A DNA stretch of 24,417 nucleotides from Alphaproteobacteria bacterium (GTDB taxonomy: Bacteria; Pseudomonadota; Alphaproteobacteria; JAAXGF01): assembly GCA_036447835.1 (NCBI GenBank), contig JAZFVR010000209.1, positions 1 through 24,417 of the forward strand, read 5' to 3'. Positions 1-24,378 of this stretch are shown piece after piece (position 1 is the stretch's first letter; every line of letters begins with the position of its first letter). A model generated the notes under the pieces. The model searched no databases, was not told where the DNA came from, and was given only the letters and a program-made list of their open reading frames with translations. The position numbers and the translations under genes were made by a program.

Positions 1-233
1 GTCACCCCGGCGTTGGTCACCGCGGTCACGATCTCGTTGAGATTGGCCTGGTTGGCGACCGCCTGCATGCTGACCTGCTCGCCCTTGCACCCGACTTCCA
101 CGGCGCCCTGCGCGGCCTGGGCGACGAGATCGGCGAAGCTGGTGCCGGTCTGGTCGACCGTCGGTGCGGTCCCGCCCGCTTGCGACTTGGCGGCGGCGTA
201 GGCGGCGATCGCTTGAGAAAAGTTCACGGCCAT
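1..233 (-). CDS. fliE: Flagellar hook-basal body protein FliE (3' end runs off the window)
   Basis: Not in the ORF track. Manual translation from ATG at 233: MAVNFSQAIAAYAAAKSQ...SFADLVAQAAQGAVEVGCKGEQVSMQAVANQANLNEIVTAVTNAGVT. GGGAG RBS upstream; lies downstream of the flgC remnant as in flgBC-fliE operons. Confidence 0.85.
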   Translation of the reverse strand, partial: MAVNFSQAIAAYAAAKSQAGGTAPTVDQTGTSFADLVAQAAQGAVEVGCKGEQVSMQAVANQANLNEIVTAVTNAGV

Positions 234-288
234 TGCTTGCTCCCTCGGCTCGATCTGTGCTCTTGCCTACCTGACGGGGTTCGTTCGC

Positions 289-510
289 TCAGCGTGCGAG
301 GAGGTCGACCGTGCGCTGCACGATGCTCCTCGAGGCCTCGATGACGCTGAGATCGGCCTCGTAGCTGCACAACGTCTCGCGCATGTCGCTCATCTCGATC
401 AGCGGATTGACGTTGGGCAGCAGAATGTAGCCGTCGGCGTCGGCCGCCGGATGACTGAGGTCGAAGCGCTTGGTCGGCATCGAAAAGAGCTGGAAGTCTT
501 CGAGTTTCAT
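289..510 (-). pseudogene. flgC: In-frame flgB'::'flgC fusion remnant (73 aa)
   Basis: MKLEDFQLFSMPTKR resembles the alphaproteobacterial FlgB N-terminus. It continues directly into the FlgC C-terminal half FDLSHPAADADGYILLPNVNPLIEMSDMRETLCSYEADLSVIEASRSIVQRTVDLL. GAGGGG RBS before ATG 510. Confidence 0.85.
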
Positions 511-527
511 CGCCCCTCGCGGTCGTC

Positions 528-545
528 TGGCGTCTCGAGACGCCA
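528..545. repeat. Perfect 18-bp palindrome in the flgB leader
   Basis: TGGCGTCTCGAGACGCCA is its own reverse complement. Confidence 0.8.
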
Positions 546-576
546 AATCGGCTGAGCGAATGGTCGCGCAGCGCCC

Positions 577-591
577 TTAAAATGCGGTTAA
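577..591. promoter_or_regulatory. CtrA box in the flgB/csrA divergent region
   Basis: TTAA-aatgcgg-TTAA (TTAA-N7-TTAA); an extra GGTTAAC half-site lies at 642-648. Confidence 0.8.
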
Positions 592-680: not shown

Positions 681-905
681 ATGTTGTACCTGACGAGGAA
701 GATCGGCGAGTCGGTCATCATCAACAATAACATCGAGCTCACCGTGGTCGAGGTGCGCGGCAAGTCGGCCAAGCTGGGTTTCACCTTCCCCTCCGACGCC
801 ACGGTTCTGCGCAAGGAGCTCTACGAGCGCATCCGCGAGGAGAACATCGCCGCCGCCGGTACCGACGGCGAGGTGGGCGGGCCGCCGCCGCCCGACGGGG
901 ACTAG
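681..905 (+). CDS. csrA: Carbon storage regulator CsrA (74 aa)
   Basis: MLYLTRKIGESVIINNNIELTVVEVRGKSAKLGFTFPSDATVLRKELYERIREEN fits the CsrA pattern (MLxLTRKxGE, VxRxE). Confidence 0.92.
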   Translation: MLYLTRKIGESVIINNNIELTVVEVRGKSAKLGFTFPSDATVLRKELYERIREENIAAAGTDGEVGGPPPPDGD

Positions 906-1002: not shown

Positions 1003-1089
1003 ATGACCGAAAGCCGCGACGCGCGCGGCCACACGCCGGTCGCCGTCGCCGAGTTCCCCGACTGGCAAGCGGACGGGGGCGCGGCATGA
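1003..1089 (+). pseudogene. 28-aa remnant, probably of a small FlhB-C-terminal-like (EscU/YscU-type) gene
   Basis: GGAG RBS at 992-995, then MTESRDARGHTPVAVA-EFPDWQADGGAA*. VAVA resembles the opening AVAL motif of these proteins; the stop overlaps the next ATG (ATGA). Confidence 0.5.
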
Positions 1090-1409
1090 GCGCGGCATCG
1101 ATCAAGGCGCGCCTCGCCGAGGCGAGCACCCAGGCCACGGTCGCGCGCCAGGCGCTCGCCCGAGGTCGCGCGTTCGACCTCGGCGGGCTCACCGAGATGG
1201 TGGAAGGCGCCTGCCGGGACCTCGCCGACCTCGAAGGACCCGACGCCAAACCGCTGCACAAACAGTCGCTGGCGCCTTCCGACGAGATCAATGGCCTCGC
1301 CACGCTGCTGACCCGCGAGCACGCGGCGTTGAAGCAGGCGCTGGGCGACCTCGGCGCACGCGAGCGCGCCCAGTCGGCGTACGCCAAGACGGCGCGCGAC
1401 GATCGCTAG
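1086..1409 (+). CDS. Helical hypothetical protein upstream of fliO (107 aa)
   Basis: MSAASIKARLAEAS...AQSAYAKTARDDR; ATG 1086 coupled to the upstream stop; coding-like codon usage. Confidence 0.7.
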   Translation: MSAASIKARLAEASTQATVARQALARGRAFDLGGLTEMVEGACRDLADLEGPDAKPLHKQSLAPSDEINGLATLLTREHAALKQALGDLGARERAQSAYAKTARDDR

Positions 1410-1436: not shown

Positions 1437-1742
1437 ATGGAATTCGAAAGCTACCTCCGTTTTGGGCTCGCCCTTGTCCTCGTCGTCGGCCTCATCGGGC
1501 TCGCCGCCTGGGTGGCGCGGCGCTTCGGGCTCGCCGGGCCGACGATGTTGCGCGGCCGGGCGCGGCGCCTCGTCGTGATCGAGTCGACCGGGATCGACGC
1601 CAAGCGCCGGCTCGTGCTCGTGCGCCGCGACGGCACCGAGCACCTGCTGCTTCTCGGGCCTGCGGGCGACGTGGTGGTCGAGAGCGACATTGCCGCGCAA
1701 GACAAGCCCGCCGCCGCCGCGCCGGCCGAGGCGGCGCAATGA
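1437..1742 (+). CDS. fliO: Flagellar biosynthesis protein FliO
   Basis: N-terminal TM segment, then RRLVVIESTGIDAKRRLVLVRRDGTEHLLLLG; overlaps the fliP start. Confidence 0.9.
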   Translation: MEFESYLRFGLALVLVVGLIGLAAWVARRFGLAGPTMLRGRARRLVVIESTGIDAKRRLVLVRRDGTEHLLLLGPAGDVVVESDIAAQDKPAAAAPAEAAQ

Positions 1743-2479
1743 GGCGCATCGCCTGGGTCGCAGCACTCGCCGCCGGCGGGCCGGTGCTGCTCGCCGCGGC
1801 GCCGGCGCTGGCGCAGACGTTCACGCTCGACTTCGGCGAGGGCGGCAGCCTCACCGGACGCATCGTCCAGCTCATCGCGCTCTTGACCATCCTCAGCCTG
1901 GCGCCGTCGATCCTGGTGGTGCTGACGTCGTTCACGCGCATCGTCGTCGTTTTGTCGATCATCCGCAGCGCGCTGGGGCTGCAGCAGACGCCGCCCAACG
2001 CGGTGATCATCAGCCTGGCGCTGTTTCTCACCGCCTTCGTCATGGCGCCGACGTTCGAGCTCGCCTACCGCGAGGGCATCGCGCCGCTGATCGACGAGGA
2101 GATCGGCGAGACCGAGGCGTTCGAGCGCACCGTGGCGCCGGTGCACGGCTTCATGATGACCCACGTGCGCGAGAAGGACCTCGGGCTGTTCATGGACATC
2201 GCCGACATCGACTCGATCGAGGCCCCCGAAGACACGCCGCTCAAGGTGCTCATTCCCGCCTTCATCATCAGCGAGCTCAAGCGCGCCTTCGAGATCGGCT
2301 TCCTCATCTTCATCCCCTTCGTCATCATCGACATGGTCGTCGCCTCGGTGCTGATGTCGATGGGCATGATGATGCTGCCCCCGGTCATGATCTCGCTGCC
2401 CTTCAAGATGATCTTCTTCGTCCTCGTCGACGGCTGGCACCTCGTCGCCGGCAGCCTGGTGCAGAGCTTCAACGTATAG
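1739..2479 (+). CDS. fliP: Flagellar export gate protein FliP
   Basis: TSFTRIVVVLSIIRSALGLQQTPPN, PAFIISELKRAFEIGF and MMMLPPVMISLPFK motifs. Confidence 0.97.
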   Translation: MRRIAWVAALAAGGPVLLAAAPALAQTFTLDFGEGGSLTGRIVQLIALLTILSLAPSILVVLTSFTRIVVVLSIIRSALGLQQTPPNAVIISLALFLTAFVMAPTFELAYREGIAPLIDEEIGETEAFERTVAPVHGFMMTHVREKDLGLFMDIADIDSIEAPEDTPLKVLIPAFIISELKRAFEIGFLIFIPFVIIDMVVASVLMSMGMMMLPPVMISLPFKMIFFVLVDGWHLVAGSLVQSFNV

Positions 2480-2520: not shown

Positions 2521-5500
2521 TCAGTTGATCGCGCTCAGGGAGCCGTTGCGCGCGCGTGCGCGGTAGCCGGCCATGAACGCCTCGAAGATGTCGACCTCGG
2601 CGACCGCGGCGGGCAGCTCGCGCACCGGAACGCGCTTGCGGTCGACCTCGGAGGTGATCATCGCGAACGCGCCCTCGTTGGCGTCGCCCTTCATCTTGGC
2701 GGCGTAGCGCTCGCGCGCGCGGGCGAGGCCCTTGACGTCATCGGCGAGCGAGAGCGCCACGACGAGCCTGAGGACGTGCTGGCTGGCGAAGAAACCGAGC
2801 GGGGGATCGAGCGGCGTCTGCTCGAGGATGCGCCAGGTCGCCGCCGCCGCCCTGGCCCACTTGCCCGCGCGCCAGAAGATGTCGGCGCGCAGAAGCTCGG
2901 CCTCGCGGCTGCGATCGCTGCGGATCAGCGCAATCGCGTCGTCGTGACGATCGAGCTCGGCCAAAGCCCGCGCCTCGAGCTGGCGGCGCTGGCCGGCGAG
3001 ATCGCGGGTGACACCCATCATCTCGCTCGCCGCCAGCGCCTCGAGCGCGCGCTCCGGCTGTTGATTCATCAGCAGGATGACCGCGAGCCGGGTGCCCACC
3101 CGCGACTTTTCGATCCCCTCGAGCCGGTAGGTGAGCTGGTGCTCGAGCACGTCGGCCGCCTGGTCGAGCAGATCGACGGCGACGAGCCTGTCGGCGAGCG
3201 CCTGCATGACCTCGTCGCCGCCCTTGCCGATCGGGGTCAGCTCGCGGAACTCGTAGAACAGCGTAAGCACCTCGCGCGCCGGCACGTCCTCGAGCCTGCC
3301 CTCGAGGAACATGCCGGTGAACAGCTCGCTCATGCGCTCGGTGACCGCGGCCGTCCGGAAGTGGTTGGCGAAGTAGGTCACCGACCGTTTCATCGCCTCG
3401 AACCCGCGGATGAACGCCTTGTCGGCAACGTAGAGCTCCGCCAGCTCGAGCAGCAGTCGCAGCTCGAGATCGTCGCCGCGCCACGCGAAACGCAGGCTCT
3501 CGAGCGACTCGATCGCTTCCGCGCGCGTCGTTTCACCGGTCTCGAGCATCAGCAGCGCGCGTTCCAGGCTGCTGCCCGCGCGCGCCAGCCGGTCGCTGCT
3601 GTTTACCGTCTTGTCCCACAGCTCCCGCGCCGCGTCGGTGTTGTCGACGGCACGCAGCGCCCGCCCGCGAATGTAGTTTGCCCGGTCGATGACGACGGGA
3701 TCCTCGACCGAGGCGAGAATGGCGTCGAGGTAGGCGTTGGCCGCCGTCATGTTGGTCGCCTCGACCGCGGCCTCGGCGGCGATGAGGCCGATCTGGCTGC
3801 GCAGCGGATGCGGCAGTTCGAGCCACAGGACGTCGGCGCGCACGAAATGGACCGTCGCCGCCTCCTTGTCGCCCAGCCGGCTGGCGAGCACGCCGCGCCA
3901 CAGCGCGATGTCGTCGTAGGCGTCGAGCGAAGGGTGATTGAGATCGGCAATGGCGCCTTCGTAACGGTTGTGCATGAGCTGCGAGATGCCGCGCACCGCG
4001 CGCAGTGTCGGGTCCTCGGCAACGGTCAGGTCTTCCTCCATCAACAGCTCGAATCGGCCCAGCACCTCTGCGAAATAACCATTGGCGAACAGGAACAACA
4101 GCTGGTCGATACGCGCCTGCCGGCGCTCTTCCACCGGCGCCACCACCACGGCGCGTTGTAGCTCTTGGCTCTTGTCGTAGAACGCGGCCACGTCGCCGCC
4201 GCGCCAGGCGGCGAAGTCCAGCAGCCTGGTCGCCGGGCCGGTGCGGCGCGTGATGCGGGCCCGTTGTTTGGGGGCCGGCCGCTCCACCGGGCCAGCGGCA
4301 TACGCCAGCTCGACGCCGGCAAGGCTCGTGCGTACGTCGAAACCCCGCGACTTGGGGAGCGCCACGATGCCTTGCGCCGTCGCCAGCAGCTCGAAACCCT
4401 CGAAGCTCCGGCCCTCGACGACCCCGGTGGCCGACGCCACCACCGGCACGACCACGAAGGTCGTGAGATCGTCCGGATCGCTCACCTGGACGCTGTCGGC
4501 GACGTCGGCGATCTTCAGTTGAACGCCGATGCCGCGGGTTTCGTCGTCGAAGGGTCGAACCTCGATCGCTTTCGGAGCTTCGGGCTTGGCGGTGAACTGC
4601 GCCAGCCACAGGTTGCCGCGCCGGCTCAACGCGACCCCGTAGCCGGCGCGCAGCCGGAAACGAAACACGGTAGCGCTCGAATGGGAAACCTGCGCCACCG
4701 ACTGGTAGGCCGGCGATTCATGCGCCAGCGCGTCGGTGAGATCGACCGAGAAGCGCTCCGGAAACACCAGCCAGACATTCCCGTCGTGCACGAAGGCGGC
4801 GCTCGCCAGCCGCTTGCCAGCGTTGAAGCTGACCAGGCTGCGGTCGCCGGTCGACTCGACGGCAACCCTCATCGGCGCCGGACCCAGCGAGATCTCGGCC
4901 GCGGTCGTCCCCAGCGATCGGCCGGCGACGGTCTGCGGCGCGTCTTCGGCGGGTAGCGACAACGGCACCAGCGCGATGGTCCCGCCGTGCGCCGCCATAC
5001 GACTCACCGTGCTCGCGGCGGGCCGGGATTCGGTCATGGCCGCTGGGCGGTATTCGGCGGAGGCGTCGGCCGCGGCCGGGGTTGCGGGTAGGGTCGCCGC
5101 CGACGGCGCCATCTCTCGGGCGACCTCTTGCGCGTCCCCCGGCAGCGGGTGCGGAGGTTCGCCTTCCGCGCCCGTCTCCGGCGCCGGATCGGGCGGCAGC
5201 GGAGTCGCATCGACCGTCGCCTTCACAGACGGTGCGAGGCCATCGTCGGGCGGTGTCGAAGCCTCTCGCGGGCGGGCGGCGGGCGCCTCGGGCCGGTCGC
5301 CTGCCGCGCCTTGGCTACGGGGGGCGAACACGTCGAGCACAACGCTGGTGCCCGAGCGGAAGTGCCGCAGGCGGTTCGGAGCGGCGACTGCGAGAGTCAC
5401 TATGGTGCGTTTGCCGGAGGTCTCGATTTCCCCGGCACCAATGTTCCGTGGCGGGCCGGCATTGAGCGCCGCCAGGTCGATGGTCGCGGCGCGGTCGAAC

Positions 5501-6018
5501 CGGATGATCGCCCTGCCGTCCTCGTGCGTGACCTTGTAATCCACCGGCATCCGCCAGTCGAAGACGATACGGCTGTAGCCGGGATGGTCGCCCACCCGGA
5601 CGTCGACGCGCGGCAGGGCCGGGCTCGGCGCTGCGGCGCCCGAGGCGGCCGCGTCGCCCACCAGATCGACCACCACCGACTTCTCGTAGACGAAGGTGCG
5701 CAACGAGAAGTCGCCGGTGAGCGAGAGCGCGACGGTACGGCCGTCGGCGTCGACGCGGGCGTCGCTCACATAGGCGCGAAGGCTGCGGCGCACCCCGTCC
5801 AACGATACGCTTAGCGGCCGGGCGAAGGTGACGCGGAGGACGCGGCCGTCGATTCTGGCGTCGTAGGTGGCCGGCGCGGGCCAGTCGAAGACGATGCGGG
5901 CGAAGCCGTCGTGTGCGGCCGCCCGGGTCGTCACGGTCTCGGCCGCCCGTGCCGCGGCGCCGGCAAGCACCGACACCGCGAGCGCGACGACGGCGAGTGC
6001 ACGGGCGCTACGTGCCAT
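2521..6018 (-). CDS. Large exported flagellar-motor-associated protein (about 1165 aa): signal peptide, two AMIN-like repeats, low-complexity linker, TPR-like C-terminus
   Basis: ATG 6018 gives MARSARALAVVALAVSVLAGAAARA (signal-like). Repeats HDGFARIVFDW and HPGYSRIVFDW. C-terminal LADRLVAVDLLDQAADVLEHQ region. Frame uninterrupted. Confidence 0.8.
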   Translation of the reverse strand: MARSARALAVVALAVSVLAGAAARAAETVTTRAAAHDGFARIVFDWPAPATYDARIDGRVLRVTFARPLSVSLDGVRRSLRAYVSDARVDADGRTVALSLTGDFSLRTFVYEKSVVVDLVGDAAASGAAAPSPALPRVDVRVGDHPGYSRIVFDWRMPVDYKVTHEDGRAIIRFDRAATIDLAALNAGPPRNIGAGEIETSGKRTIVTLAVAAPNRLRHFRSGTSVVLDVFAPRSQGAAGDRPEAPAARPREASTPPDDGLAPSVKATVDATPLPPDPAPETGAEGEPPHPLPGDAQEVAREMAPSAATLPATPAAADASAEYRPAAMTESRPAASTVSRMAAHGGTIALVPLSLPAEDAPQTVAGRSLGTTAAEISLGPAPMRVAVESTGDRSLVSFNAGKRLASAAFVHDGNVWLVFPERFSVDLTDALAHESPAYQSVAQVSHSSATVFRFRLRAGYGVALSRRGNLWLAQFTAKPEAPKAIEVRPFDDETRGIGVQLKIADVADSVQVSDPDDLTTFVVVPVVASATGVVEGRSFEGFELLATAQGIVALPKSRGFDVRTSLAGVELAYAAGPVERPAPKQRARITRRTGPATRLLDFAAWRGGDVAAFYDKSQELQRAVVVAPVEERRQARIDQLLFLFANGYFAEVLGRFELLMEEDLTVAEDPTLRAVRGISQLMHNRYEGAIADLNHPSLDAYDDIALWRGVLASRLGDKEAATVHFVRADVLWLELPHPLRSQIGLIAAEAAVEATNMTAANAYLDAILASVEDPVVIDRANYIRGRALRAVDNTDAARELWDKTVNSSDRLARAGSSLERALLMLETGETTRAEAIESLESLRFAWRGDDLELRLLLELAELYVADKAFIRGFEAMKRSVTYFANHFRTAAVTERMSELFTGMFLEGRLEDVPAREVLTLFYEFRELTPIGKGGDEVMQALADRLVAVDLLDQAADVLEHQLTYRLEGIEKSRVGTRLAVILLMNQQPERALEALAASEMMGVTRDLAGQRRQLEARALAELDRHDDAIALIRSDRSREAELLRADIFWRAGKWARAAAATWRILEQTPLDPPLGFFASQHVLRLVVALSLADDVKGLARARERYAAKMKGDANEGAFAMITSEVDRKRVPVRELPAAVAEVDIFEAFMAGYRARARNGSLSAIN

Positions 6019-6733
6019 CCCCGCCTCCGTCGGCGAAGGCCTCGCGAATGACGATGTCGACGCGGCGGGCGAGCCGATAACGCTGCTCGTCCACGAAATC
6101 GGCGGGAATCTCGTCGAAGCGCGCATCGGCGAACCCGAGGGCGATGATCTCCCGAGTATAGCCGACGGTGCGCAGACCGTCGGCGACCGCCACCGCCCGG
6201 TCGAGCGAAAGCTCCCAGTTCGAGCGCGTACCGCGGCCTCGAATCGGGTTTGGGTCGGTATGGCCGTTGACGTCGACTCGATTGGCGATATGGCGCAAGG
6301 TTTCGCCCAGCTCGTTGAGTGCCTGACGCGCCTCAGGGGTCAACTCGGCGCTGTTCGAGGCGAACAGAAGGTCGCCCGGCAGGGTGATGACGAGCCGGTC
6401 GTCGATACGGCGCAACAGCGCCTGGCCGAGTACCGGGCGACCACGCGTCTTCTGGGCGATCACCGCATGCAGATAATCGAGGTCGGTGGCGTCGGCGCTG
6501 GCGATCGTCTTCGCGGTGCGGTCGGTCAGGCCGGGAACGGATTCCCAGCCGCGGTCGGGATTGAGCCGCTGCGACAGAGCGCTGATCATGATTTCCCAGT
6601 TCGCCTCCTTGACCGACGACATGGCAAACAACATGACGAAGAAGGTGAGCAGCAGCGAGATCAGGTCGGCGAAGGTGATCAACCATCGCGTTTCGATCGG
6701 GCGCTCGGGGCTGCGCTCTGGAGGGAACGGCAT
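6008..6733 (-). CDS. motB: Stator protein MotB (OmpA-like peptidoglycan-binding domain)
   Basis: WLITFADLISLLLTFFVML has the essential Asp; GHTD, NWELSLDRA and RRVDIVI motifs. Confidence 0.93.
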   Translation of the reverse strand: MPFPPERSPERPIETRWLITFADLISLLLTFFVMLFAMSSVKEANWEIMISALSQRLNPDRGWESVPGLTDRTAKTIASADATDLDYLHAVIAQKTRGRPVLGQALLRRIDDRLVITLPGDLLFASNSAELTPEARQALNELGETLRHIANRVDVNGHTDPNPIRGRGTRSNWELSLDRAVAVADGLRTVGYTREIIALGFADARFDEIPADFVDEQRYRLARRVDIVIREAFADGGGDGT

Positions 6734-6736
6734 GGT

Positions 6737-7417
6737 CTACTCCCCGCCGGCTGCCGACAGGAGCGCGTCTTCGCCCGCCGCCCGGGTGAAGAACAGCAGA
6801 CGCAGCATCGCCGGATCGCCCTCTTCGATGCCGACCGATATATGGTTCGCGGACACGTTGCGCGCGTCCAGCTGCCGCGCGAAGGCGCCGGCGCGCTCGA
6901 CCGCGATCGCCCGCTCGGGTGTCGGGTTGCGCGCCTCGGCGACCGGCAACGCGATCAGCAGCTCGGCCTCGAAATAATGACCGGGAATCTCCCGGTTGAG
7001 GGCCGCGGCGAGCCGGTCGAAAAAGGGTGCCTGCTCGGCCAGCGGCGTGGTCCGGCCGGGCGCATAGATCGACTCGACGGGAATCTCCACCTGCATCTGC
7101 CCGAAGGGCTGATAGGGCGAGACCTTGACGAAAGGAAACTCCGCCTCGAAGAGCGCGCGCACCGTATTCTCGAAATCAGCGATGGCCGAGAAGACGCCAC
7201 TCCCGGGGGCGACGTCGAAAGGCCCCGTGGCCACCAGGGCGGGCTCGGAGAAGGTCGCGCCGAGACTGCCGAGCACCGCATTGGAGCGCGCTTCCTGGCG
7301 GCTGGAGATGGCGTTCATCAGGATGAAGAAAGCGAGGATGATGAGATAGAGGGCGAGGAAGATCGGCGTCGTGGAATCGCCCGGCGCCTTGGGCTTCGCT
7401 GGGAGTCCCCCGATCAT
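6737..7417 (-). CDS. MotB-like paralog lacking the catalytic TM Asp
   Basis: TM IFLALYLIILAFFILMNAIS aligns with the MotB TM with Ala at the Asp position; degenerate OmpA-like C-terminus. Confidence 0.7.
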   Translation of the reverse strand: MIGGLPAKPKAPGDSTTPIFLALYLIILAFFILMNAISSRQEARSNAVLGSLGATFSEPALVATGPFDVAPGSGVFSAIADFENTVRALFEAEFPFVKVSPYQPFGQMQVEIPVESIYAPGRTTPLAEQAPFFDRLAAALNREIPGHYFEAELLIALPVAEARNPTPERAIAVERAGAFARQLDARNVSANHISVGIEEGDPAMLRLLFFTRAAGEDALLSAAGGE

Positions 7418-7426: not shown

Positions 7427-7795
7427 TCAGTCGAAGCTTGCGAGCAGCGCGTCGATATCCTCTTGCTTGTTCCCCTCTCCGGGCAACTGCGGACCGTTGA
7501 GCAGATCGTGATCGGCGCCGGTCGGCTTGTTCTCCCCATCGGTGGCCGCCTCGTCCTCGACCGCCGCGTGCGTCGCCCGCACCTCGTCGCCGAAGACGCT
7601 GACGAGCGGGTCGAGACGCTCCTCGATATGCTCGAGGGTGGTGATGACCTTGCTGATGCGCTGGCCGGTGAGATCCTGGAAACCGCACGCTCCGAAGATA
7701 CGGATGACCTCGTCGGTGGCGACGGTGTCGCCGCGCTCGGCGCGTAAGGCTTCCACACGCGCGCTGACGTCATCGCCGATTTCCTGCGCCTTCAC
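7427..7795 (-). pseudogene. cheZ: Alphaproteobacterial CheZ-type phosphatase with probable internal in-frame deletion (122 aa)
   Basis: N-terminal VEALRAERGDTVATDEV runs directly into IRIFGACGFQDLTGQRISKV. C-terminal LLNGPQLPGEGNKQEDIDALLASFD. The central helical region appears to be missing. Confidence 0.7.
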
Positions 7796-10608: not shown

Positions 10609-10618
10609 GGCCCTTCGT

Positions 10619-11140: not shown

Positions 11141-11192
11141 TTGCCACCTTTGGAATTCGGCACGCGGCAGCCGTGGGGCCGCATCAACCGGG

Positions 11193-11210
11193 TTGGAAAC
11201 ATTATTGCGA
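11193..11210 (+). promoter_or_regulatory. sigma54-like -24/-12 promoter, divergent from fliL, with no recognisable downstream gene
   Basis: TTGGAAACATTATTGCGA (GG-N10-GC, TTGC at -12); AAGAGG and ATG 11235 follow. Confidence 0.5.
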
Positions 11211-11223
11211 ATCAGGCGTTAAC
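11208..11223 (-). promoter_or_regulatory. Imperfect CtrA site upstream of fliL containing a GANTC site
   Basis: Minus strand GTTAA-cgcctga-TTCG; GAATC at 11209-11213. Confidence 0.45.
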
Positions 11224-11348
11224 AAGAGGTTGCGATGGGCGCCGCGACCCCCGTTTACGGCGCATTCGGGCGGCTTCGCCATGCGCGCGATGCTCGATGG
11301 ACGCGATGCCCGGAGCCGGGCGGGGTCGCGCTCGCGGCCGGCCCAGTC

Positions 11349-11777
11349 TCATGCCTCCTGGCGTGCCCAGACCAGGTTGACGAACGCCTCGGCGTTGTCG
11401 GGATCGCGCGTGACCGCCCGGCGATAGCTCTCCACCGCCTCGTCGGCGCGCCCGAGACGCCGAAGCACGGTCCCGCGGTTGGAAAATTAGGCGGGATTGC
11501 TCCCGTCGATGGCGATCGCCCGGTCGATGAGGTCGAGCGCGTCGTCGTCACGTCCCGTCTGGTGAACGACGACGCCGAGCTGATTGAGGACGTCGGCCTG
11601 CCGCGGCTCCGCCGCCAGCACCTCGCGGTAGAGCGCCTCGGCCTCGGCGAGCGCGCCCGCCTGGTGCAGCCGCACCGCGCTGACCAGCTTCTCGGCGATC
11701 GAAGGGGCCGGGGCGCGGGCCGCCGGCGCCGGCTTGCGCGTCTCTGGTTAGCGGCGGCGCCGCGCTTGATGGTTCAT
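11349..11777 (-). pseudogene. TPR-repeat protein pseudogene with two in-frame stops
   Basis: One frame reads MNHQARRRR*PETRK...AVRLHQAGALAEAEALYREVLAAEP...AIAIDGSNPA*FSNRGTVLRRLGRADEAVESYRRAVTRDPDNAEAFVNLVWARQEA*. The TAAs are at 11748-11750 and 11487-11489. Confidence 0.85.
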
Positions 11778-11922
11778 TGGCGTGATCGCCGTTGCGGCGC
11801 CTGGTTGCCCATTGTTCGCCTGCGATCATCGAGTGCGCATGGTGGGCCGGCGGCGAACGCCCGTGTCGATGCGCCGGCCGCGGCGGCGCCTGCCCGCGCC
11901 GGTCACGGCCCACCCGCAAGGG

Positions 11923-12372
11923 TCAGCCGTCCCGGTAAATTTTCTCGCGCCGCTCGTGGCGTTCCTGGGCGTCGATGCTGAGGGTGGCGATGGGTCGCGC
12001 CTCGAGCCGGCGCAGGCTGATCGGATCGCCGGTTTCCTCGCAGTAGCCGTAGGACCCGTCCTCGATGCGCATGAGGGCGGCGTCGATCTTGGTGATGAGC
12101 TTGCGTTCGCGGTCGCGGGTTCTCAGCTCGAGTGCGCGGTCGGTCTCGATCGACGCGCGGTCGGCGAAGTCGGGCTCCTGCGACGTCTCCTCCTGGAGGT
12201 GCTGGAGCGTCTGGGTCGATTCATCGAGCAGCTCAGACCGCCACTGCAGGAGCTTGCGCTGGAAGTACTCGACCTGCACCGAGTTCATGAACGGCTCGTC
12301 GTTCGACGGCCGGTACTCGGGCGACAGGATCATCGATTTCTTGGCGTTCTGACGAGAAGCCAACTCACTCAT
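11923..12372 (-). CDS. dksA: RNA polymerase-binding factor DksA (single-Cys alphaproteobacterial type)
   Basis: DFADRA coiled-coil tip and YGYCEETGDPISLRRLEARPIATLSIDAQERHER. Exact start codon uncertain. Confidence 0.95.
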   Translation of the reverse strand: MSELASRQNAKKSMILSPEYRPSNDEPFMNSVQVEYFQRKLLQWRSELLDESTQTLQHLQEETSQEPDFADRASIETDRALELRTRDRERKLITKIDAALMRIEDGSYGYCEETGDPISLRRLEARPIATLSIDAQERHERREKIYRDG

Positions 12373-12478: not shown

Positions 12479-12898
12479 TCATTTTATTATGCCCAGCTTG
12501 GCGAGCTCGACGGCGGCCCTGAGGTCGATCTCCTCGAGGATCGCGGCGAGGCGTTCGTCGGTCACGGTTTCCCGTCTCGCCTGCACCTGTTCGCGCAGCC
12601 CGACGAGGCGTTCGCGGGGTATCGAGCCCATCAGCAATCCGTGTCGGATCTCATCGAGGCGATCGAGGATGTTGTGGCCGCGAGCGACGCTGCGCGAGCG
12701 GCCGCCGGTCTCTTCGGATACCTCCTGCACGGCGAGAATGCCCTCGATCGCACCCACGGCCGTCCCGGGAATCACCGCCGACGCCGCGTTGGGCTCGTCC
12801 CCGACCTCGGCCGCAAATTCGGTTTCCTTGGCGCTGCGCACGCCCTTGCTTCGACGCGCCGGCGTCGGGCTAATCGGAGCGGGGCCGGAGATCTTCAT
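12479..12898 (-). CDS. fliX: Flagellar assembly regulator FliX (139 aa)
   Basis: From ATG 12898: MKISGP...ILAVQEV...RGHNILDRLDEIRHGLLMG...EEIDLRAAVELAKL; divergent from flgI. Confidence 0.9.
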   Translation of the reverse strand: MKISGPAPISPTPARRSKGVRSAKETEFAAEVGDEPNAASAVIPGTAVGAIEGILAVQEVSEETGGRSRSVARGHNILDRLDEIRHGLLMGSIPRERLVGLREQVQARRETVTDERLAAILEEIDLRAAVELAKLGIIK

Positions 12899-13148: not shown

Positions 13149-13191
13149 TTGGCGAGAGCGGACCCGTGGAGTGATTCTGCCGGGGACGATC

Positions 13192-13526
13192 ATGGATCGT
13201 ATGCTGCTTTCGAGTGCCGCCCTGAAACGTCGAGGCCCGCGCCGCCGGCGGTGGCTCGCCGCAGGCCTTGGCGCCGCGCTCGTGCTGATGCTCGCCGCAG
13301 GCACGGCGAGCGCCATGTCGCGGATCGAGGACATTGCCGCCTTCGAGGGCGTGCGCGACAACCGGCTCGTCGGCTACGGTCTCGTCGTCGGCCTCAACGG
13401 CACCGCGACACGCTCAACAACGCGCCGTTCACGCAGCAGAGCCTGATCGGCATGCTCGAACGCCTCGGCATCAACACCCGAGGCGTCACCCTGAGTACCG
13501 CGAACATCGCCGCGGTGATGGTCACC
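13192..13526 (+). pseudogene. flgI: 5' fragment of P-ring gene flgI with a 1-nt deletion frameshift
   Basis: Signal peptide + SRIEDIAAFEGVRDNRLVGYGLVVGLNGT, a missing base at about 13405, then DTLNNAPFTQQSLIGMLERLGINTRGVTLSTANIAAVMVT in the shifted frame. Confidence 0.92.
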
Positions 13527-13622
13527 GACATGATCATCACCCAGCGAGCGTTCTCCGCGAGCTCGCGCGTGATCACCACGGTCGACGACATGCTCGAAGA
13601 ACTGATCCGCATCCGGCGGTGA
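13524..13622 (+). pseudogene. flgE: 3' end of hook gene flgE fused to flgI'
   Basis: TDMIITQRAFSASSRVITTVDDMLEELIRIRR* is a hook/rod-type C-terminal D0 helix. flgE lies next to sciP-fliF in Caulobacter. Confidence 0.8.
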
Positions 13623-13801: not shown

Positions 13802-14095
13802 ATGAACGAAGGTACGCTGTTCAATCGCTCAACGATCGGGGGGCGCCTTGACGTACCGGTCACCCTCGACGACCTGCCGCCGCCCGACACCAAACGTTGG
13901 GTGGTGCGGCGCAAGGCGGCCGTCGTGGCGGCGGTGCGCACGGGTCTGATCACCCTCGAGGAAGCGTGCCGTCGTTACACCCTATCGGTTGAAGAATTCC
14001 TTTCGTGGGAACGCGCCATGGAGAAGCACGGGCTGCGTGGCCTCCGTGTAACGCGCCTTCAGGAATACCGCGCACCATCGCGAGATGTGAGATAG
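13802..14095 (+). CDS. sciP: CtrA inhibitor SciP (DUF1153)
   Basis: LDDLPPPDTKRWVVRRKAAVVAAVRTGLITLEEACRRYTLSVEEFLSW...GLRVTRLQEYR. Start chosen from the GGAG at 13789-13792. Confidence 0.93.
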   Translation: MNEGTLFNRSTIGGRLDVPVTLDDLPPPDTKRWVVRRKAAVVAAVRTGLITLEEACRRYTLSVEEFLSWERAMEKHGLRGLRVTRLQEYRAPSRDVR

Positions 14096-16979: not shown

Positions 16980-17723
16980 ATGGCTGAACCCGTCAAGTTC
17001 AATTTCGAGACCGTTTTCGAACTGAAAGACGGCGGTGGCAGCGGCCGCGGCGTGGCGTTTTCGCAAAGCTACACCCGCCAAGAACTCAACGCCGCGTGCG
17101 AAGAGGCGCGCCGGGCCGGGTTTGCCGAAGGCGTGGCGCAGGAACAGGCGAGAATCGAGCGCCGGCAAGCCGACGCGCTCGATGCGATCGGCGAGCGGAT
17201 GAGCGAAATCGCGCGCGTCCAGGCCGCCGAGTTCGAACGCACCGTCAAGAGCGCGACGGCGCTGTCTCTGGCCGTCGCGCGCAAGGTCGCGCCGGCGCTC
17301 ATGCAGCGCCAGCCTCTGGCCGAGATCGAGACGATGATCGCCGACCACCTGGCGCAGCTCATCGACGAACCAAATGTGGTCATGCGCGTTCCCGACGCCC
17401 TGCTCGACGCGATCAAGAACCGGATCGACGAGATCGCCGAGGACTGCGGTTACGCCGGCCGCATCGTCCTGCTCGCCGATTCGTCCCTCGGCGAAAGCGG
17501 CTGCCACATAGAGTGGGCCGATGGCGGTGCGGAGCGCAACACCGACGCCGTTTGGCGCGAGATCGAGACCGCGATCGAACGGCTCCTGCACGCGCCGGTC
17601 GGAGACTCCCCGGAGGACGACGGCGTAACGGCACCTGATGCAGGCAACCCGATACAGGAACCGGTCGAATCTGAGGCGTCTCACGACGTCGACGATTCCG
17701 AGACCGACCAGTCCAACGAGTAG
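16980..17723 (+). CDS. fliH: Flagellar assembly protein FliH (FlbE-like)
   Basis: From ATG 16980: MAEPVKFNFETVF...ARRAGFAEG...LGESGCHIEWADGGAER. Confidence 0.85.
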   Translation: MAEPVKFNFETVFELKDGGGSGRGVAFSQSYTRQELNAACEEARRAGFAEGVAQEQARIERRQADALDAIGERMSEIARVQAAEFERTVKSATALSLAVARKVAPALMQRQPLAEIETMIADHLAQLIDEPNVVMRVPDALLDAIKNRIDEIAEDCGYAGRIVLLADSSLGESGCHIEWADGGAERNTDAVWREIETAIERLLHAPVGDSPEDDGVTAPDAGNPIQEPVESEASHDVDDSETDQSNE

Positions 17724-17732: not shown

Positions 17733-18098
17733 ATGTCGGACACCAAGGGCGAGCTTGACCTCGCCGACCTCGACACCGACGGCCAGGAAGCGCAGCTGGA
17801 AGACACTCCCGCCGAGGGTGATCCCGCGCTGGCGCAGGCCGCGGGGCCAAAGTCGGGCAGCGACCTCGAGGCGGTGTTCGACGTGCCGGTCCAGGTCTCG
17901 GCCGTTCTCGGCAAGGCCACGCTCCAGGTCTCGCAGCTACTGAAGCTCGGACGCGGCGCGGTGGTCGAGCTCGACCGCAAGGTGGGCGAGGCGATCGACA
18001 TCTACGTCAACGACCGTCTCGTCGCCCGCGGCGAGATCGTGGTCGTCGAGGATCGCCTGGGCGTGACCATGACGGAAATCATCAAGTCCGATCGCTGA
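17733..18098 (+). CDS. fliN: Switch protein FliN
   Basis: VFDVPVQVSAVLGK...LDRKVGEAIDIYVNDRLVARGEIVVV. Confidence 0.96.
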   Translation: MSDTKGELDLADLDTDGQEAQLEDTPAEGDPALAQAAGPKSGSDLEAVFDVPVQVSAVLGKATLQVSQLLKLGRGAVVELDRKVGEAIDIYVNDRLVARGEIVVVEDRLGVTMTEIIKSDR

Positions 18099-18127: not shown

Positions 18128-18895
18128 ATGGACTTGGCAACACTTCTCGGGCTCTTTGCGGGGTTCGGCCTCATCGGCACCGCCATCGTGCTCGGCGGCA
18201 CGCCGCTCGCGTTCGTCGACGCGCCCGCGATGCTCATCGTCTTCGGCGGCACCTTCGCCGTGACGATCGTTTCGTTCTCGCTCGACGACGTGCTGCGCGC
18301 CAACAGCGCCGTGTTCAAGGCGTTGTTCCAGCCGGTGCTCGACACCAGCATCGCCGCCACCCAGGTGCTCGAGCTGGCGGAATTGGCGCGTCACAAGGGC
18401 GCGCTGGCGCTCGAGAACGTGCAGTCCAAAACGGTCAACCTGCCGTTCCTGAACGAGGGCCTGTCGCTCGTCGTCGACGGCTCGAGCGGCGATGAAGTCG
18501 AAAGCATCATGACGCGCAAGGTCCACGCCATGGCGAGCCGCCACGCGAGGAGCGTCGAGGTGATACGCAAGGCGGCCGACGTGTCGCCGGCGATGGGCCT
18601 GATCGGCACGCTGGTCGGCCTGGTACAAATGCTCGGCAATCTCGAAGACCCGTCGACGATCGGGCCGAGCATGGCGGTGGCGCTGCTCACCACGTTTTAC
18701 GGGGCGGTGCTGTCGAACATGGTGTTTTCGCCCCTGGCGGCCAAACTCGAGCGCAAATCGGGCGATGAGGTTCTGCTCAACACCATCTACCTCACCGGAC
18801 TGGCATCGATCACCCGGCACGAGAACCCGCGCCGGCTCGAGATGCTGCTCAACACGCTGCTGCCCCCCACCGAACGGATTGAGTACTTCGAATAG
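18128..18895 (+). CDS. motA: Stator protein MotA/PomA family
   Basis: MDLATLLGL, SPAMGLIGTLVGLVQML and MAVALLTTFYG motifs. Confidence 0.92.
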   Translation: MDLATLLGLFAGFGLIGTAIVLGGTPLAFVDAPAMLIVFGGTFAVTIVSFSLDDVLRANSAVFKALFQPVLDTSIAATQVLELAELARHKGALALENVQSKTVNLPFLNEGLSLVVDGSSGDEVESIMTRKVHAMASRHARSVEVIRKAADVSPAMGLIGTLVGLVQMLGNLEDPSTIGPSMAVALLTTFYGAVLSNMVFSPLAAKLERKSGDEVLLNTIYLTGLASITRHENPRRLEMLLNTLLPPTERIEYFE

Positions 18896-18931: not shown

Positions 18932-20296
18932 ATGCGTTTACTCATTGTTGGCTCACTCGGCGGCGAAATCGGCACCGCCAGCAAGATCGCCATGGCACGA
19001 GGGGCCAAGGTTGGCCATGCCGGCGACATCGACACCGCGCTCGAAGCGCTGCGATCCGGCCGGGGGGCCGAGCTGGTGATGGTCGACGTCAAGCTCGACA
19101 TCGCCCGCTTCATCGGCTGTCTGACCTCGGAGCGCATCAGCGTGCCGGTCGTCGCTTGCGGCGTCGACCCCGACGCCGACGCCGCGGTACGGGCGATCAA
19201 GGCGGGCGCTCGCGAGTTCATTCCGCTGCCGCCCCAGGCCGAGCTCATCGCGGCGGTGCTCGAGGCGGTGGCGGCAGCGAGCCACACCATCATCTACCGC
19301 GATCCCGCCACGGCCAAGGTTCTGAACCTCGCCGAGCGGGTCGCCCCCTCCGACGCCAGCATCCTGATCACCGGGGAATTGGGAACCGGCAAGGAGCTGC
19401 TCGCCCGTTTCGTACATCGCCACAGCCGCCGCTCGGGAGAATCCTTCGTCTCGGTGAACTGCGCCGCGATCCCTGAGAACCTGCTCGAATCCGAGTTGTT
19501 CGGGCACGAGAAGGGCGCCTTCACCGGCGCCGTCGCCCGCCGCATTGGCAAGTTCGAGGAAGCCAACGGCGGCACGCTCCTGCTCGACGAGATCAGCGAG
19601 ATGGACCCGCGCCTCCAGGCCAAGCTCCTGCGTTCGCTCCAGGAGCGCGAGATCGACCGCGTCGGCAGCTCGGCGCCGATCAAGATCGACATCCGCCTCG
19701 TCGCGACGAGCAACCGCGACCTTGAGGCCGCAGTGGCGGAGGGCAGCTTCCGCGAGGACCTCCTGTTCCGCCTCAATGTCGTCAACCTGCACATGCCGCC
19801 GCTGCGCGAACGCACCGGCGACATCCCGGTGCTGTGCAGCCACTTCATCGAGAAGTACTCGGAGGCCAATGGGATTGCGGTGCGGCCGTTGGCGCCCGCG
19901 GCGCACGACATGCTGGTCGGCCACGGCTGGCGCGGCAACGTGCGCGAACTCGAGAACACCATCCATCGCTCCGTGCTGCTGGCCAAGGGCGAGCAAATCG
20001 GCCCCGACGCGATCATGCTGTCGAGCGGTTCGCAGCGCAGTGAAACGCTGGCCCCTGGCAACGGCGACAGCGCTGCGGCGGTCACCGGCGCCACCAGCCG
20101 CCTGGTCGGGCGCACCGTCGCCGATGTCGAGCGCGACCTCATCCTCGAGACGCTCACCCACTGCCTCGGCAACCGCACCCATGCCGCCAACATCCTCGGG
20201 ATCTCGATCCGCACCCTGCGTAACAAGCTCAAGCTGTACGCCGGCGAGGGCAACAAGGTGCCGCAACCCGGCGAAGCGCCGCAAGCCGCACTCTAG
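18932..20296 (+). CDS. flbD: sigma54-dependent flagellar activator FlbD (REC-AAA+-HTH)
   Basis: GAFTGA, LLLDEISE and GNVRELEN motifs; HTH GNRTHAANILGISIRTLRNKL; position after fliF-G-H-N. Confidence 0.93.
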   Translation: MRLLIVGSLGGEIGTASKIAMARGAKVGHAGDIDTALEALRSGRGAELVMVDVKLDIARFIGCLTSERISVPVVACGVDPDADAAVRAIKAGAREFIPLPPQAELIAAVLEAVAAASHTIIYRDPATAKVLNLAERVAPSDASILITGELGTGKELLARFVHRHSRRSGESFVSVNCAAIPENLLESELFGHEKGAFTGAVARRIGKFEEANGGTLLLDEISEMDPRLQAKLLRSLQEREIDRVGSSAPIKIDIRLVATSNRDLEAAVAEGSFREDLLFRLNVVNLHMPPLRERTGDIPVLCSHFIEKYSEANGIAVRPLAPAAHDMLVGHGWRGNVRELENTIHRSVLLAKGEQIGPDAIMLSSGSQRSETLAPGNGDSAAAVTGATSRLVGRTVADVERDLILETLTHCLGNRTHAANILGISIRTLRNKLKLYAGEGNKVPQPGEAPQAAL

Positions 20297-22590: not shown

Positions 22591-22612
22591 TGGTGCGCCG
22601 GAGCATGCCGAA

Positions 22613-23584
22613 ATGCGCCTGAAATCGTTCACTGCGGCGAGCATGAGCGAGGCCATGCGACAGATTCGCGTCGAGTTCGGCGAGGACGCGGTGATCGTTT
22701 CGAGCCAGCGCATCATGGGTCACCAGGGCGTGCGGGTTACCGCCGCGCTCGACGACTCCGGCGAAATCCCCGTCGCCAGCGTCGAGCCGCTGGCGCCGCG
22801 CGAAATGGTGGAAGCGATCGACCGCGCGCTCAGCGACCACGGTACGCCGCGCTGGCTGGTCGAGCAGCTCACCGGCGCCGTGTGCGGTGACGAGGACGAT
22901 CTCTTGACCCTGCTCGCTCACGTCCTCGCGGAGAGTTTCCGCTTCGAGCCGTTGGCAGAGGACGGCGCGGCGCGGCCGATCGCTCTCGTGGGTCCGCCCG
23001 GCGTCGGCAAGACGGTCGCCACCGCCAAGATCGCCACGCGCTGGGTTCTCGCCAAGCGACCGGTCAGGGTGATCTCGACCGACAGCTTCCGCGCCGGCGG
23101 CGTCGACCAGCTCGCCGCCCTCACCAAGATTCTGGGAATCAGGCTGTTCACCGCAGCCTCGCCGCGCGAGCTACAGGAAGTGGCGACGGCGGGCGAACCC
23201 GGCGAACTGGTTCTCGTCGACACCGCCAACGCGAACCCCTTCAGCAAGGCCGAGCTGGTGCGCCTCGCCGAGCTCACCGACAGCATCGGCGCCGAACCGC
23301 TGCTGATCCTGGCTGCGGGTGGCGACGCCGAAGAGGCGGCCGAGATCGGCGAGGTTTACAGTGCGCTCGGCGCGACCCGCATGATCGTGACCCGGCTCGA
23401 CGCGGCGCGCCGCCTCGGCGGCATTCTCGCGGCGGCGAACCACGGCCGGCTGGGATTCTGCGAGGTGAGCCTCAGCCCCCACGTTTCACGCAGTCTTCAC
23501 CCCATCGACCCGCAAGCGCTGGCGCGTTTGCTTCTCAGCCACCAGGCCGAACGCGAGCAGGCCGAAGAGCCCGACGAGGCATAG
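22613..23584 (+). CDS. flhF: SRP-family GTPase FlhF
   Basis: MRLKSFTAASMSEAMRQIRVEFGEDAVIVS N-terminus; GPPGVGKT, DSFRAGG and TRLD motifs; G3 reads DTAN. Confidence 0.9.
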   Translation: MRLKSFTAASMSEAMRQIRVEFGEDAVIVSSQRIMGHQGVRVTAALDDSGEIPVASVEPLAPREMVEAIDRALSDHGTPRWLVEQLTGAVCGDEDDLLTLLAHVLAESFRFEPLAEDGAARPIALVGPPGVGKTVATAKIATRWVLAKRPVRVISTDSFRAGGVDQLAALTKILGIRLFTAASPRELQEVATAGEPGELVLVDTANANPFSKAELVRLAELTDSIGAEPLLILAAGGDAEEAAEIGEVYSALGATRMIVTRLDAARRLGGILAAANHGRLGFCEVSLSPHVSRSLHPIDPQALARLLLSHQAEREQAEEPDEA

Positions 23585-23586
23585 CA

Positions 23587-24378
23587 ATGGCAACGAGCAG
23601 CTCTGCACGACAACAGCCCGACACGCGCCCGACCGGCGAAAACATCATCACGATCGCGTCGGGGAAAGGCGGTGTCGGCAAGACCTGGCTGGCGATCACG
23701 CTGGCCCATGCCCTGGCGCGATCGGGTCGCCGGGCGCTGCTGTTCGACGGCGACATCGGTCTCGCCAACGTCGACATCCAGCTCGGTCTGGCGCCCGAAC
23801 ACGACCTCGGCAGCGTCATCGCCGGCCGGCTCAGCCTGCACAGCGCGGTCACCACCTTCGCCGACGGCGGGTTCGACATCATCGCCGGGCGTTCGGGATG
23901 GGGGAGCCTCACGGCGCTGCACCCCTCGCGGCTGACCACCCTGCGCGACGACCTCATCGCCATGGCCGGCGGCTACGACGACGTGGTGGTCGACCTCGGC
24001 GCCGGCCTCGAACAGAGCGTGCGGCTGCTGACCGTGCCCGCCGGCCGCTGCCTCATCGTCACCACCGACGAGCCCACGGCGCTCACCGACGCGTACGCCT
24101 TCATGAAGATCATCCGCGCCGAACGGCCGGGCATCGACCTGCGCGTGGTGGTCAACATGGCGGCCACCCCGAAGGATGGCGAGAACACGTACAACACCCT
24201 GTGCAGGGTGTGCGAGAACTTCCTCAAGTTCACGCCGCCGCTCGCCGGGGTGGTTTGCCGCGATTCCCACGTCAAGGATGCGATCCGCAACCAGACCGCC
24301 ATGCTCACCCGGCACCCGGGGAGCAGGGCGTCGAGCGACATCGAGATGCTGGCCCGGGCCTTGGCGAGAGCGAGGTAG
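23587..24378 (+). CDS. flhG: MinD-like ATPase FlhG/FleN
   Basis: IASGKGGVGKT, DGDIGLANVDIQLG, DLGAG and EPTALTDAYAFMK motifs. Confidence 0.93.
   Translation: MATSSSARQQPDTRPTGENIITIASGKGGVGKTWLAITLAHALARSGRRALLFDGDIGLANVDIQLGLAPEHDLGSVIAGRLSLHSAVTTFADGGFDIIAGRSGWGSLTALHPSRLTTLRDDLIAMAGGYDDVVVDLGAGLEQSVRLLTVPAGRCLIVTTDEPTALTDAYAFMKIIRAERPGIDLRVVVNMAATPKDGENTYNTLCRVCENFLKFTPPLAGVVCRDSHVKDAIRNQTAMLTRHPGSRASSDIEMLARALARAR

Follow-up and report, generated by a model that had tools for sequence, protein, structure and literature searches.

The window analysed here, 24,417 base pairs (bp) long, takes in contig C209 from end to end. This contig, the longest in an alphaproteobacterial metagenome-assembled genome (MAG), carries the core of a Caulobacter-type polar flagellum. 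The lineage it comes from is a natural late flagellar mutant, in which the axial and extracytoplasmic parts of that flagellum have been deleted. Lost are rod, L/P-rings and ring chaperone, hook, hook cap and ruler, junction, filament cap and flagellins, together with FliW, FlaG and a flagellin-type glycosyltransferase. Kept are the MS-ring (FliF), the C-ring (FliG/M/N), the export apparatus (FlhA/B, FliO/P/Q/R, FliH/I/J, FliE), MotA/MotB, FliL, periplasmic accessory proteins and CheY/CheZ, as well as the regulators FlhF/FlhG, FlbD/FliX, CsrA and a SciP-like gene. We consider it very probable that this core was retained under selection after the axial genes were lost, and we tentatively suggest, from which of its genes are constrained, that it has a stator-coupled signalling function; for the favoured explanation as a whole we estimate a probability of about 0.6. 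Genome surveys keep meeting 'half motors' and cannot separate relics from working machines. In the present case, precise deletion scars can be read against a sister lineage that still has its flagellum, and wild strains are numerous enough for a selection test; the lineage is a natural test case for the use of half a flagellar motor.

Deletion scars and their distribution among strains

The MAG (2.42 Mb in 468 contigs, N50 of ~6 kb, 69% G+C, 89% complete, 0.4% contamination) belongs to a GTDB family that holds flagellate and non-flagellate genera, and a flhA match was absent in 6 of its 12 other genomes, indicating that flagellar loss is frequent in the family. Genes in the window were mapped from Pfam and NCBIfam scans, and synteny was assessed against four family members, G003, G005, G009 and G011, whose FlhA is ~80% identical and which have 5 or 6 rod/hook-type genes apiece. 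The genes shared with the window are collinear in G003, G009 and G011, with the blocks rearranged in G005. In G009 the gene order comprises four blocks, namely flgB-flgC-fliE-(fliQ)-fliR-flhB; fliL, the divergent flgF-flgG-flgA-flgH and then dksA-fliX; flgI, flgK, flgL and fliW, divergent from fliX and ending at a contig break; and flaG, fliD, fliK, flgD and flgE, followed by the SciP-like gene and fliF. Relative to this order, the window bears three scars:

289..510, minus strand: FlgB::FlgC stub (scar 1), 73 amino acids (aa), now a pseudogene, heading the fliE (probably also fliQ-fliR-flhB) operon
11141..11800, minus strand: TPR remnant (scar 2), the 5′ part of a TPR + GT41 glycosyltransferase gene
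13192..13622, plus strand: FlgI::FlgE stub (scar 3), N-terminal FlgI sequence running into the 31 C-terminal residues of FlgE

At scar 1, FlgB residues 1–15 are fused in frame to the last 58 residues of FlgC, with the junction at a Lys-Arg microhomology common to both genes, near 466–471. At scar 2, the four genes that relatives carry there as flgF-flgG-flgA-flgH are gone between fliL (start at 11140) and dksA (stop at 11923), and the TPR remnant left in their place has in-frame TAA stops. We had considered this remnant as an independent old pseudogene, but rejected that on finding an intact sister lineage (FliM variant P0084, GCA_044345325.1) with an unbroken 694-aa TPR + GT41 gene between dksA and flgH, of which the window retains the 5′ part only. 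At scar 3, FlgI is present from its signal peptide through the N-terminus, is broken near 13405 by a 1-bp deletion and then resumes, and the FlgE tail is joined to it in frame near 13526. Because the contig breaks match in G009 and G011, the two late-gene clusters on either side appear to have been adjacent in the ancestor, and if so a single event probably removed the whole late-gene block. The two fused stubs, the frameshift in the flgI piece, the nonsense codons in the TPR gene and the lack of flgF/G/A/H beside fliL had all been read from the window by the original prediction, and all were upheld by the comparison with relatives. A further difference at scar 1, an HTH_3 gene between flgB and csrA in G009 (L030 9828–10130), is not part of this loss, since neither G003 nor the window has the gene there.

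Exact-protein look-ups and cluster listings recovered 2–22 sequence variants of most retained proteins in NCBI, ENA, JGI and Logan assemblies. The readable foreign contigs are 98.9–99.6% identical to the window in nucleotide sequence and have other contig ends but identical junctions, that of scar 1 being confirmed in L091, that of scar 2 in L092, L093, L094, L095 and L099, and that of scar 3 in L092, L093, L094 and L099. Recurring as they do in independent assemblies, the junctions are not an assembly artefact, and the misassembly that would have undone the original prediction was not found. The clade with the deletions is present in more than 10 samples and includes a divergent branch (FliM variant P0081, 13 of 402 residues different) in which, according to gene calls and proteins, flgF–H are absent and the FlgI::FlgE fusion is an unbroken 143-aa open reading frame without the flgI frameshift. 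In the sister lineage, the deleted genes are still intact; its FliM lies in the same 90% protein cluster and is ~90% identical to that of the window (count from the alignment), the differences being mostly in the N-terminal tail. These sequence comparisons place the deletions before the diversification of the clade and after its split from the intact sister. The remnants had previously been taken to be old; with the sister lineage intact and the P0081 fusion unbroken, the loss is instead recent.

Variation among strains since the deletions

Since all strains share the deletions, the differences among them arose after the loss. We aligned eight foreign contigs to the window, counting every variable site once, and added short contigs over the flhA 3′ end, flhF and flhG and one contig over fliQ, fliR and flhB. 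The counts below, with the ratio of nonsynonymous to synonymous polymorphism (pN/pS), are of segregating sites pooled over strains, for which linkage and shared ancestry make the p-values that follow approximate. The scaffold gene named in them encodes a 1165-aa secreted protein that is likely, from its sequence, to be a periplasmic motor scaffold.

Retained flagellar genes, all: 118 synonymous, 120 nonsynonymous, pN/pS ~0.35
Retained genes, window set only: 101 synonymous, 113 nonsynonymous, pN/pS 0.38
Retained genes, window set without the scaffold gene: 71 synonymous, 64 nonsynonymous, pN/pS 0.30
Ordinary genes on contig C406 (14 genes, same population): 139 synonymous, 111 nonsynonymous, pN/pS 0.28
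Three remnants: 3 synonymous, 22 nonsynonymous, pN/pS 2.56

The retained genes differ from the remnants (Fisher p = 5e-4) and from neutral expectation (binomial p = 5e-12), and compare with the C406 background at p = 0.08, or p = 0.59 without the scaffold gene. Departure from neutrality was observed both for stator and switch genes (motA, motB, the MotB-like gene, fliL, cheY, cheZ and the MgtE_N-like and DUF6468 genes; 24 synonymous and 18 nonsynonymous sites, p = 1.5e-5) and for the genes of the rings, the export apparatus and the regulators (47 and 46 sites, respectively, p = 1e-7). Moreover, the absence of stops and frameshifts from the retained genes, noted originally for the window, extends to the other strains: there was no nonsense codon or frameshift in these genes in any of the DNA compared (~20 kb coding), where the only coding indel is a polymorphic, in-frame 3-bp insertion in csrA. 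Uniform decay, which would have argued against the original prediction, was thus looked for and not found, and its proposal that MS/C-ring, export-gate and stator genes were kept after the axial and ring genes had gone is supported by pN/pS. Judged by these polymorphisms, the retained core has been under purifying selection of the ordinary kind since the deletions, while the scars decay neutrally.

As a baseline, dN/dS between the motile relatives G009 and G011 is 0.02–0.32 per gene, leaving aside the values for fliF and the scaffold gene, which are alignment artefacts. The within-clade pN/pS is higher than this but agrees with the genome background, and so is a product of the shallow timescale rather than of relaxed selection. 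Relatives whose FlhA is ~80% identical were left out of pairwise dN/dS tests, because such comparisons would mostly reflect evolution before the loss and because dS was expected to be saturated.

Among strains, fliP has no nonsynonymous and two synonymous changes, and motA none and one; MotA, with just two protein variants, of which the window's own occurs on 10 contigs, is the least variable protein of all. Two nonsynonymous and three synonymous changes were found in motB, and two and 12, respectively, in flhA (3′ part), flhF and flhG taken together. pN/pS is 0.13 for the MgtE_N/FlbB-like gene, 0.15 for the MotB-like gene, 0.18 for the DUF6468 gene, 0.22 for fliM and 0.21–0.68 for fliF, fliG, fliH and fliN. 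Polymorphic sites make up 0.4–11% of the retained proteins and 3–11% of the background proteins, compared to 25% of the FlgB::FlgC stub, where most variants have a premature stop and the 15 members listed, from a cluster of 19, are 15 distinct variants. As the most polymorphic peptide of all, and mostly truncated, the stub was rejected as a functional mini-rod protein.

The other remnants also continue to decay. In the TPR remnant, nonsense codons at four places and a 1-bp indel at 11260 vary among strains, another 121 bp (13049–13169) are deleted in L093, and the dksA-to-fliL spacer occurs in three lengths (1090, 784 and 672 bp, from gene coordinates), implying further deletions. Overall, with the flgI frameshift and the premature stop of the FlgB::FlgC stub counted in, at least eight independent disabling events have struck the ~1.5 kb of remnants versus none in ~20 kb of retained coding sequence; by our own arithmetic, the chance that the seven events located in DNA would all fall in the remnants is ~1e-8. 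Within the TPR remnant, six linked substitutions in 16 bp (window 11396–11411), common to L093, L095 and L099, look like a recombination or gene-conversion tract or an old haplotype. On C406, cobS (9619–10683) and an hpcH-like gene (19105–20085) have a pS of ~0.12, 3–4 times that of their neighbours, which suggests imported alleles.

Gene content and regulation of the retained apparatus

To establish what else the genome encodes, Pfam models and G009 late proteins (the latter by tblastn) were searched against all its contigs. No match to Flg_bb_rod or Flagellin_N was found, and nothing significant to FlgH (best E = 0.64, on the strand opposite flhB); Flg_bbr_C matches are confined to two of the window stubs, and the FlgI match covers profile positions 1–70 only, in the frameshifted window stub. 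Likewise, tblastn across the whole genome detected no FlgB, F, G, A, H, K or L, FliW, FlaG, FliD, FliK or FlgD, and of the rod and hook proteins only the FlgC stub and the last 31 residues of FlgE matched. The genome has one FliG and one FlhA, and hence no second flagellar system. In contrast to the late genes, fliQ, fliR and flhB are intact on contig C463, as are fliI and then fliJ on C448, where FliI scores 635 bits against the FliI_clade3 equivalog cut-off of 587 and lies below the SctN cut-off. The search that the original prediction called for thus turned up the remaining export genes intact and no axial genes in the assembled genome. The gene for sigma-54 is on contig C217, and two che clusters (one with CheW, a methyl-accepting chemotaxis protein (MCP), CheW and a CheA-like gene; the other with CheA and CheW) and a further MCP gene are intact on C152, C339 and C173, in a genome without a flagellin match. 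Compared with a motility-competent flagellum, therefore, MS-ring, C-ring, export apparatus and stators are all present as open genes with their key motifs, whereas the rod, the hook, junction, cap and flagellin, and the L/P rings with FlgA are all absent.

Besides the scars, the window contains the following genes:

3..233, minus strand: fliE, first 77 codons, running off the contig end; 56–62% identical to the FliE of relatives
681..905, plus strand: csrA (Pfam CsrA)
1086..1409, plus strand: conserved 107-aa gene upstream of fliO; 38–50% identity at the same position in relatives, matching no family
1437–1742, plus strand: fliO (Pfam FliO)
1739–2479, plus strand: fliP (Pfam FliP)
2521..6018, minus strand: scaffold gene, with weak TPR and AMIN-like matches; the least constrained of the retained genes
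6008..6733, minus strand: motB, with plug, proton-carrying Asp and OmpA-like domain
6737..7417, minus strand: MotB-like gene without the channel Asp; weak MotB_plug match
7427–7795, minus strand: cheZ (family scan)
7810–8196, minus strand: cheY, a receiver with every phospho-acceptor residue
8306–8920, minus strand: MgtE_N/FlbB-like gene (family scan)
8924–9403, minus strand: DUF6468 gene (family scan)
9400–10608, minus strand: fliM (Pfam)
10619–11140, minus strand: fliL (Pfam)
11923..12372, minus strand: dksA (Pfam)
12479..12898, minus strand: fliX (Pfam FliX); a 139-aa gene call in other assemblies
13802..14095, plus strand: DUF1153 gene (SciP-like; family scan), adjoining fliF
14242 or 14305 (start uncertain), plus strand: fliF (family scan)
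15949–16965, plus strand: fliG (family scan)
16980–17723, plus strand: fliH (family scan)
17733–18098, plus strand: fliN (family scan)
18128..18895, plus strand: motA (Pfam MotA_ExbB)
18932..20296, plus strand: flbD, sigma-54 activator with GAFTGA loop
20491–22590, plus strand: flhA (family scan)
22613–23584, plus strand: flhF (family scan)
23587–24378, plus strand: flhG (family scan)

All the retained genes listed in the original prediction are open, although its list overlooked fliE, cheZ and the DUF6468 gene. The fliE of the window is missed by the Pfam FliE model, which has no match in the genome. Key residues are present in other products as well, FlhB having its NPTH cleavage site and FliI its Walker A and B motifs. 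A scan of genome contigs with FliF returned distant MAGs only, at no more than 51% identity. With csrA retained in a genome that has no match to FliW, its usual partner, and none to flagellin, CsrA would then be unopposed.

Regulatory elements of the Caulobacter type accompany these genes. The DUF1153 family presumably includes Caulobacter SciP, and CtrA-type motifs precede the retained operons and are unchanged among strains except at spacer positions:

577..591, plus strand: TTAA-N7-TTAA motif (CtrA-box type) upstream of the stub/fliE operon, unchanged in L091
12970..12984, plus strand: TTAA-N7-TTAA motif between fliX and the flgI stub

Seven matches to TTAA-N7-TTAA occur in the window, against 0.12 expected by chance, and two to TTAACCAT, against 0.05 expected, one at 13709, before the DUF1153 gene, and the second at 14141, after that gene and upstream of fliF. 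This arrangement, from which CtrA binding is inferred, would fit continued CtrA-type cell-cycle transcription. No close match to the sigma-54 promoter consensus was detected in the window. Of the Caulobacter-type hierarchy, FlbD with its GAFTGA loop, FliX, sigma-54 and CtrA-type boxes before class II operons are thus all in place, and the class III/IV target genes are all deleted.

Two observations concern contig C463. Its end (4750–5323; 1–507 in L132) carries a short repeated GC-rich motif, which suggests a repeat or insertion between fliE and fliQ. In addition, a gene for a PAS-HisKA-REC hybrid histidine kinase overlaps the flhB stop and is followed by recA (L132 2643–4898, equivalent to C463 359–2614); recA is at the matching place in G009, ~2.4 kb from flhB, and the kinase arrangement appears conserved. 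This kinase is a candidate signalling partner of the apparatus.

Possible functions and related systems

Constraint on the stators, FliL and CheY/CheZ is best accommodated by stator- and chemotaxis-coupled signalling. A rotor with stators would still be built at the pole, and as an organelle it would act in signalling and regulation instead of propulsion. Protons passing through stators that engage a rotor without load, or a blocked one, would feed an output such as adhesion or development through cyclic di-GMP, with phosphorylated CheY modulating the flow. That a propeller-less rotary motor has been kept as a dedicated organelle turning chemosensory input and proton flow into output is a possibility that we put forward with some reserve. 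It has a precedent in Caulobacter late mutants that keep the MS/C-ring rotor, in which adhesion is switched on via MotB proton flux and DgcB, with fliF epistatic (Hershey et al., 2021; PMC7885107); chemotaxis also feeds into this stator branch (Salemi et al., 2024; PMC11580411). The window lineage resembles such Caulobacter crescentus mutants (e.g. flgH and hook mutants) in having rotor, export apparatus and MotAB but no rod, ring, hook or filament, and also in its regulation, with FlbD/FliX, a SciP-like gene and CtrA-type boxes. It differs in that those are laboratory mutants of a motile species, whereas here the state is fixed in a wild clade under selection. The lineage would thus support from nature the laboratory finding that rotor and stators can signal without a filament; if the explanation is true, a flagellar motor exapted beyond motility or envelope-spanning secretion would for the first time be documented in nature with evidence of selection.

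Other roles for the core were weighed against this one. The class II structure might be kept only because FliX/FlbD reads its assembly and FlhF/FlhG positions it, for control of transcription, the cell cycle or division, the motor parts having no job of their own. This was the main idea of the original prediction, which also named signalling and periplasmic export. FlbD, FliX, sigma-54, the SciP-like gene and the CtrA-type boxes are all kept and conserved, as this would require, and every class II structural gene is constrained. Caulobacter cells that have lost class II genes show disturbed division, and their FlbD is blocked by way of FliX. Such a checkpoint, however, leaves unexplained why motA, motB with its proton-carrying Asp, the MotB-like gene, fliL, cheY and cheZ should be just as constrained, MotA being the least variable protein of all, and the known FlbD targets, class III and IV genes, are all deleted; we regard it as rather unlikely. 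Less probable again is that the flagellar type III export apparatus, with the C-ring as sorting platform, was exapted for non-flagellar proteins, to the periplasm or beyond. The export set is complete, FliE included, and constrained, and Abby and Rocha (2012; PMC3459982) place flagellum-specific gene loss before the new function of the injectisome. If this explanation were true, the lineage would be the living counterpart of the step with which injectisomes are proposed to have begun. Yet no conduit is left across peptidoglycan and outer membrane, neither substrates nor chaperones emerged as candidates, FliI is scored as a flagellar equivalog under the SctN cut-off, and stators, FliL and CheY/CheZ are constrained although unnecessary for export. 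A pure checkpoint or pure export role thus fits less well than stator-coupled signalling, to which either may be an alternative or an addition.

Two further explanations would do away with a new function altogether. If axial genes resided on a plasmid, on a contig left out of the bin or in the 11% of the genome that the MAG lacks, the organism might still swim; the MAG is highly fragmented and flagellin arrays often escape assembly or binning, but three separate native loci are deleted, ~18 different late genes have no match, there is only one FliG and one FlhA, the remnants decay freely and the same state recurs in many independent assemblies, all of which makes a hidden set of axial genes very improbable. 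We give even less credence to a loss so recent that the remainder is merely undecayed, without any selection. It would agree with the youth of the clade, with an intact sister whose FliM falls in the same 90% cluster and with the proneness of the family to flagellar loss, seen in the genomes without a flhA match and in G004, a family member whose flhA has five stops. It does not agree with post-deletion polymorphisms that stand at background pN/pS in the retained genes and at ~2.6 in the remnants, nor with disabling events confined to the latter.

Several points nonetheless weigh against retention of the core as a signalling organelle. The function is read from the pattern of constrained genes, and the clade is shallow (~1% nucleotide divergence among strains with DNA), so that selection is demonstrated over a short evolutionary time only. 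Recombination with motile relatives, if it brought in polymorphisms, could bias pN/pS; tracts dense in single-nucleotide polymorphisms were not seen in the retained genes. At 89% completeness and an N50 of ~6 kb, the MAG leaves a small chance of axial genes on unbinned DNA, and fliE is incomplete in every readable assembly, the contigs breaking between fliE and fliQ. Finally, the scaffold gene has a pN/pS of 0.59 and, in gene calls and proteins, is split into 864 + 290 aa on one ENA contig of 7,266 bp, while the MgtE_N/FlbB-like gene is cut to 114 aa, with ~155 extra bases upstream, on a 22,790-bp contig of ERZ23498356. Together, these hint that the periplasmic accessory layer may be less constrained than the core; the disrupted genes, each in a single lineage, could be deleterious alleles or assembly errors. 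The split and shortened genes are also possible first losses among periplasmic accessory genes.

Among known reduced flagella, that of Buchnera aphidicola (Maezawa et al., 2006, PMC1595500; Toft and Fares, 2008; both cited in PMC13063649) belongs to a non-motile organism, has no filament and probably serves another purpose. The window lineage has the reverse subset, with no rod, rings or hook but with stators, CheY/CheZ and che clusters kept. Buchnera keeps the rod, ring and hook genes and envelope-spanning hook-basal bodies and lacks stators and chemotaxis genes; relative to this content, the window lineage shows neither the retention of rod, ring and hook nor the loss of stators and chemotaxis. 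It also shows no signs of a reduced endosymbiont, having a 2.4-Mb genome of 69% G+C with che clusters and biosynthetic genes kept.

A second comparison is with the origin of injectisomes, or non-flagellar type III secretion systems, for which Abby and Rocha (2012) proposed a step of flagellum-specific loss and described secretin-less systems in Myxococcales. As in that step, axial genes were lost here while the type III export core was conserved. The difference is that the genes in this lineage are flagellar orthologues ~80% identical to those of motile relatives, with FliG and MotAB kept. It is not an injectisome: FliI passes the flagellar cut-off and fails that for SctN, FliG and MotAB are both encoded, and neither needle nor SctD-type parts were evident in an analysis that made no search for secretin or needle genes. 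Nonetheless, it offers a present-day picture of a flagellum that sheds its axial parts yet is kept, an intermediate of the kind invoked for injectisome origin, and, if our explanation is true, a living model for the gene-loss step thought to precede injectisome evolution.

Within its own family, G004 has the same ancestral cluster and tendency to lose motility but exhibits uniform decay, versus the clean split between deleted and preserved genes in the window. On its contig C48 (L037), flhA contains two TGA, two TAG and one TAA stops, and the flbD match is in two pieces, which suggests a frameshift or indel. In the window clade, stops or frameshifts with pN/pS to match are found in the three scars only, and not in the cluster overall.

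[quoted passage not shown] That survey is of presence and absence only, with no evidence on selection, to which the present case adds scars, an intact sister and a population-level selection test for one lineage. Among ~400 alphaproteobacteria that we sampled, no other genome was found to combine FliG and FlhA with a lack of both flagellin and rods. Nine FliG-positive genomes with no more than two rod C-terminal matches were followed up, with cross-tabulation by eye, and all nine either encoded flagellin or had no FlhA; divergent rods, too, escape the short rod models. In genus g141, all three sampled genomes have FliG, the two tested further (G143 and G267) have FlhA and flagellin, and the rod models barely match any. 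G018 and G041, which have FliG and flagellin matches but no FlhA and no rod matches, represent another kind of partial set.

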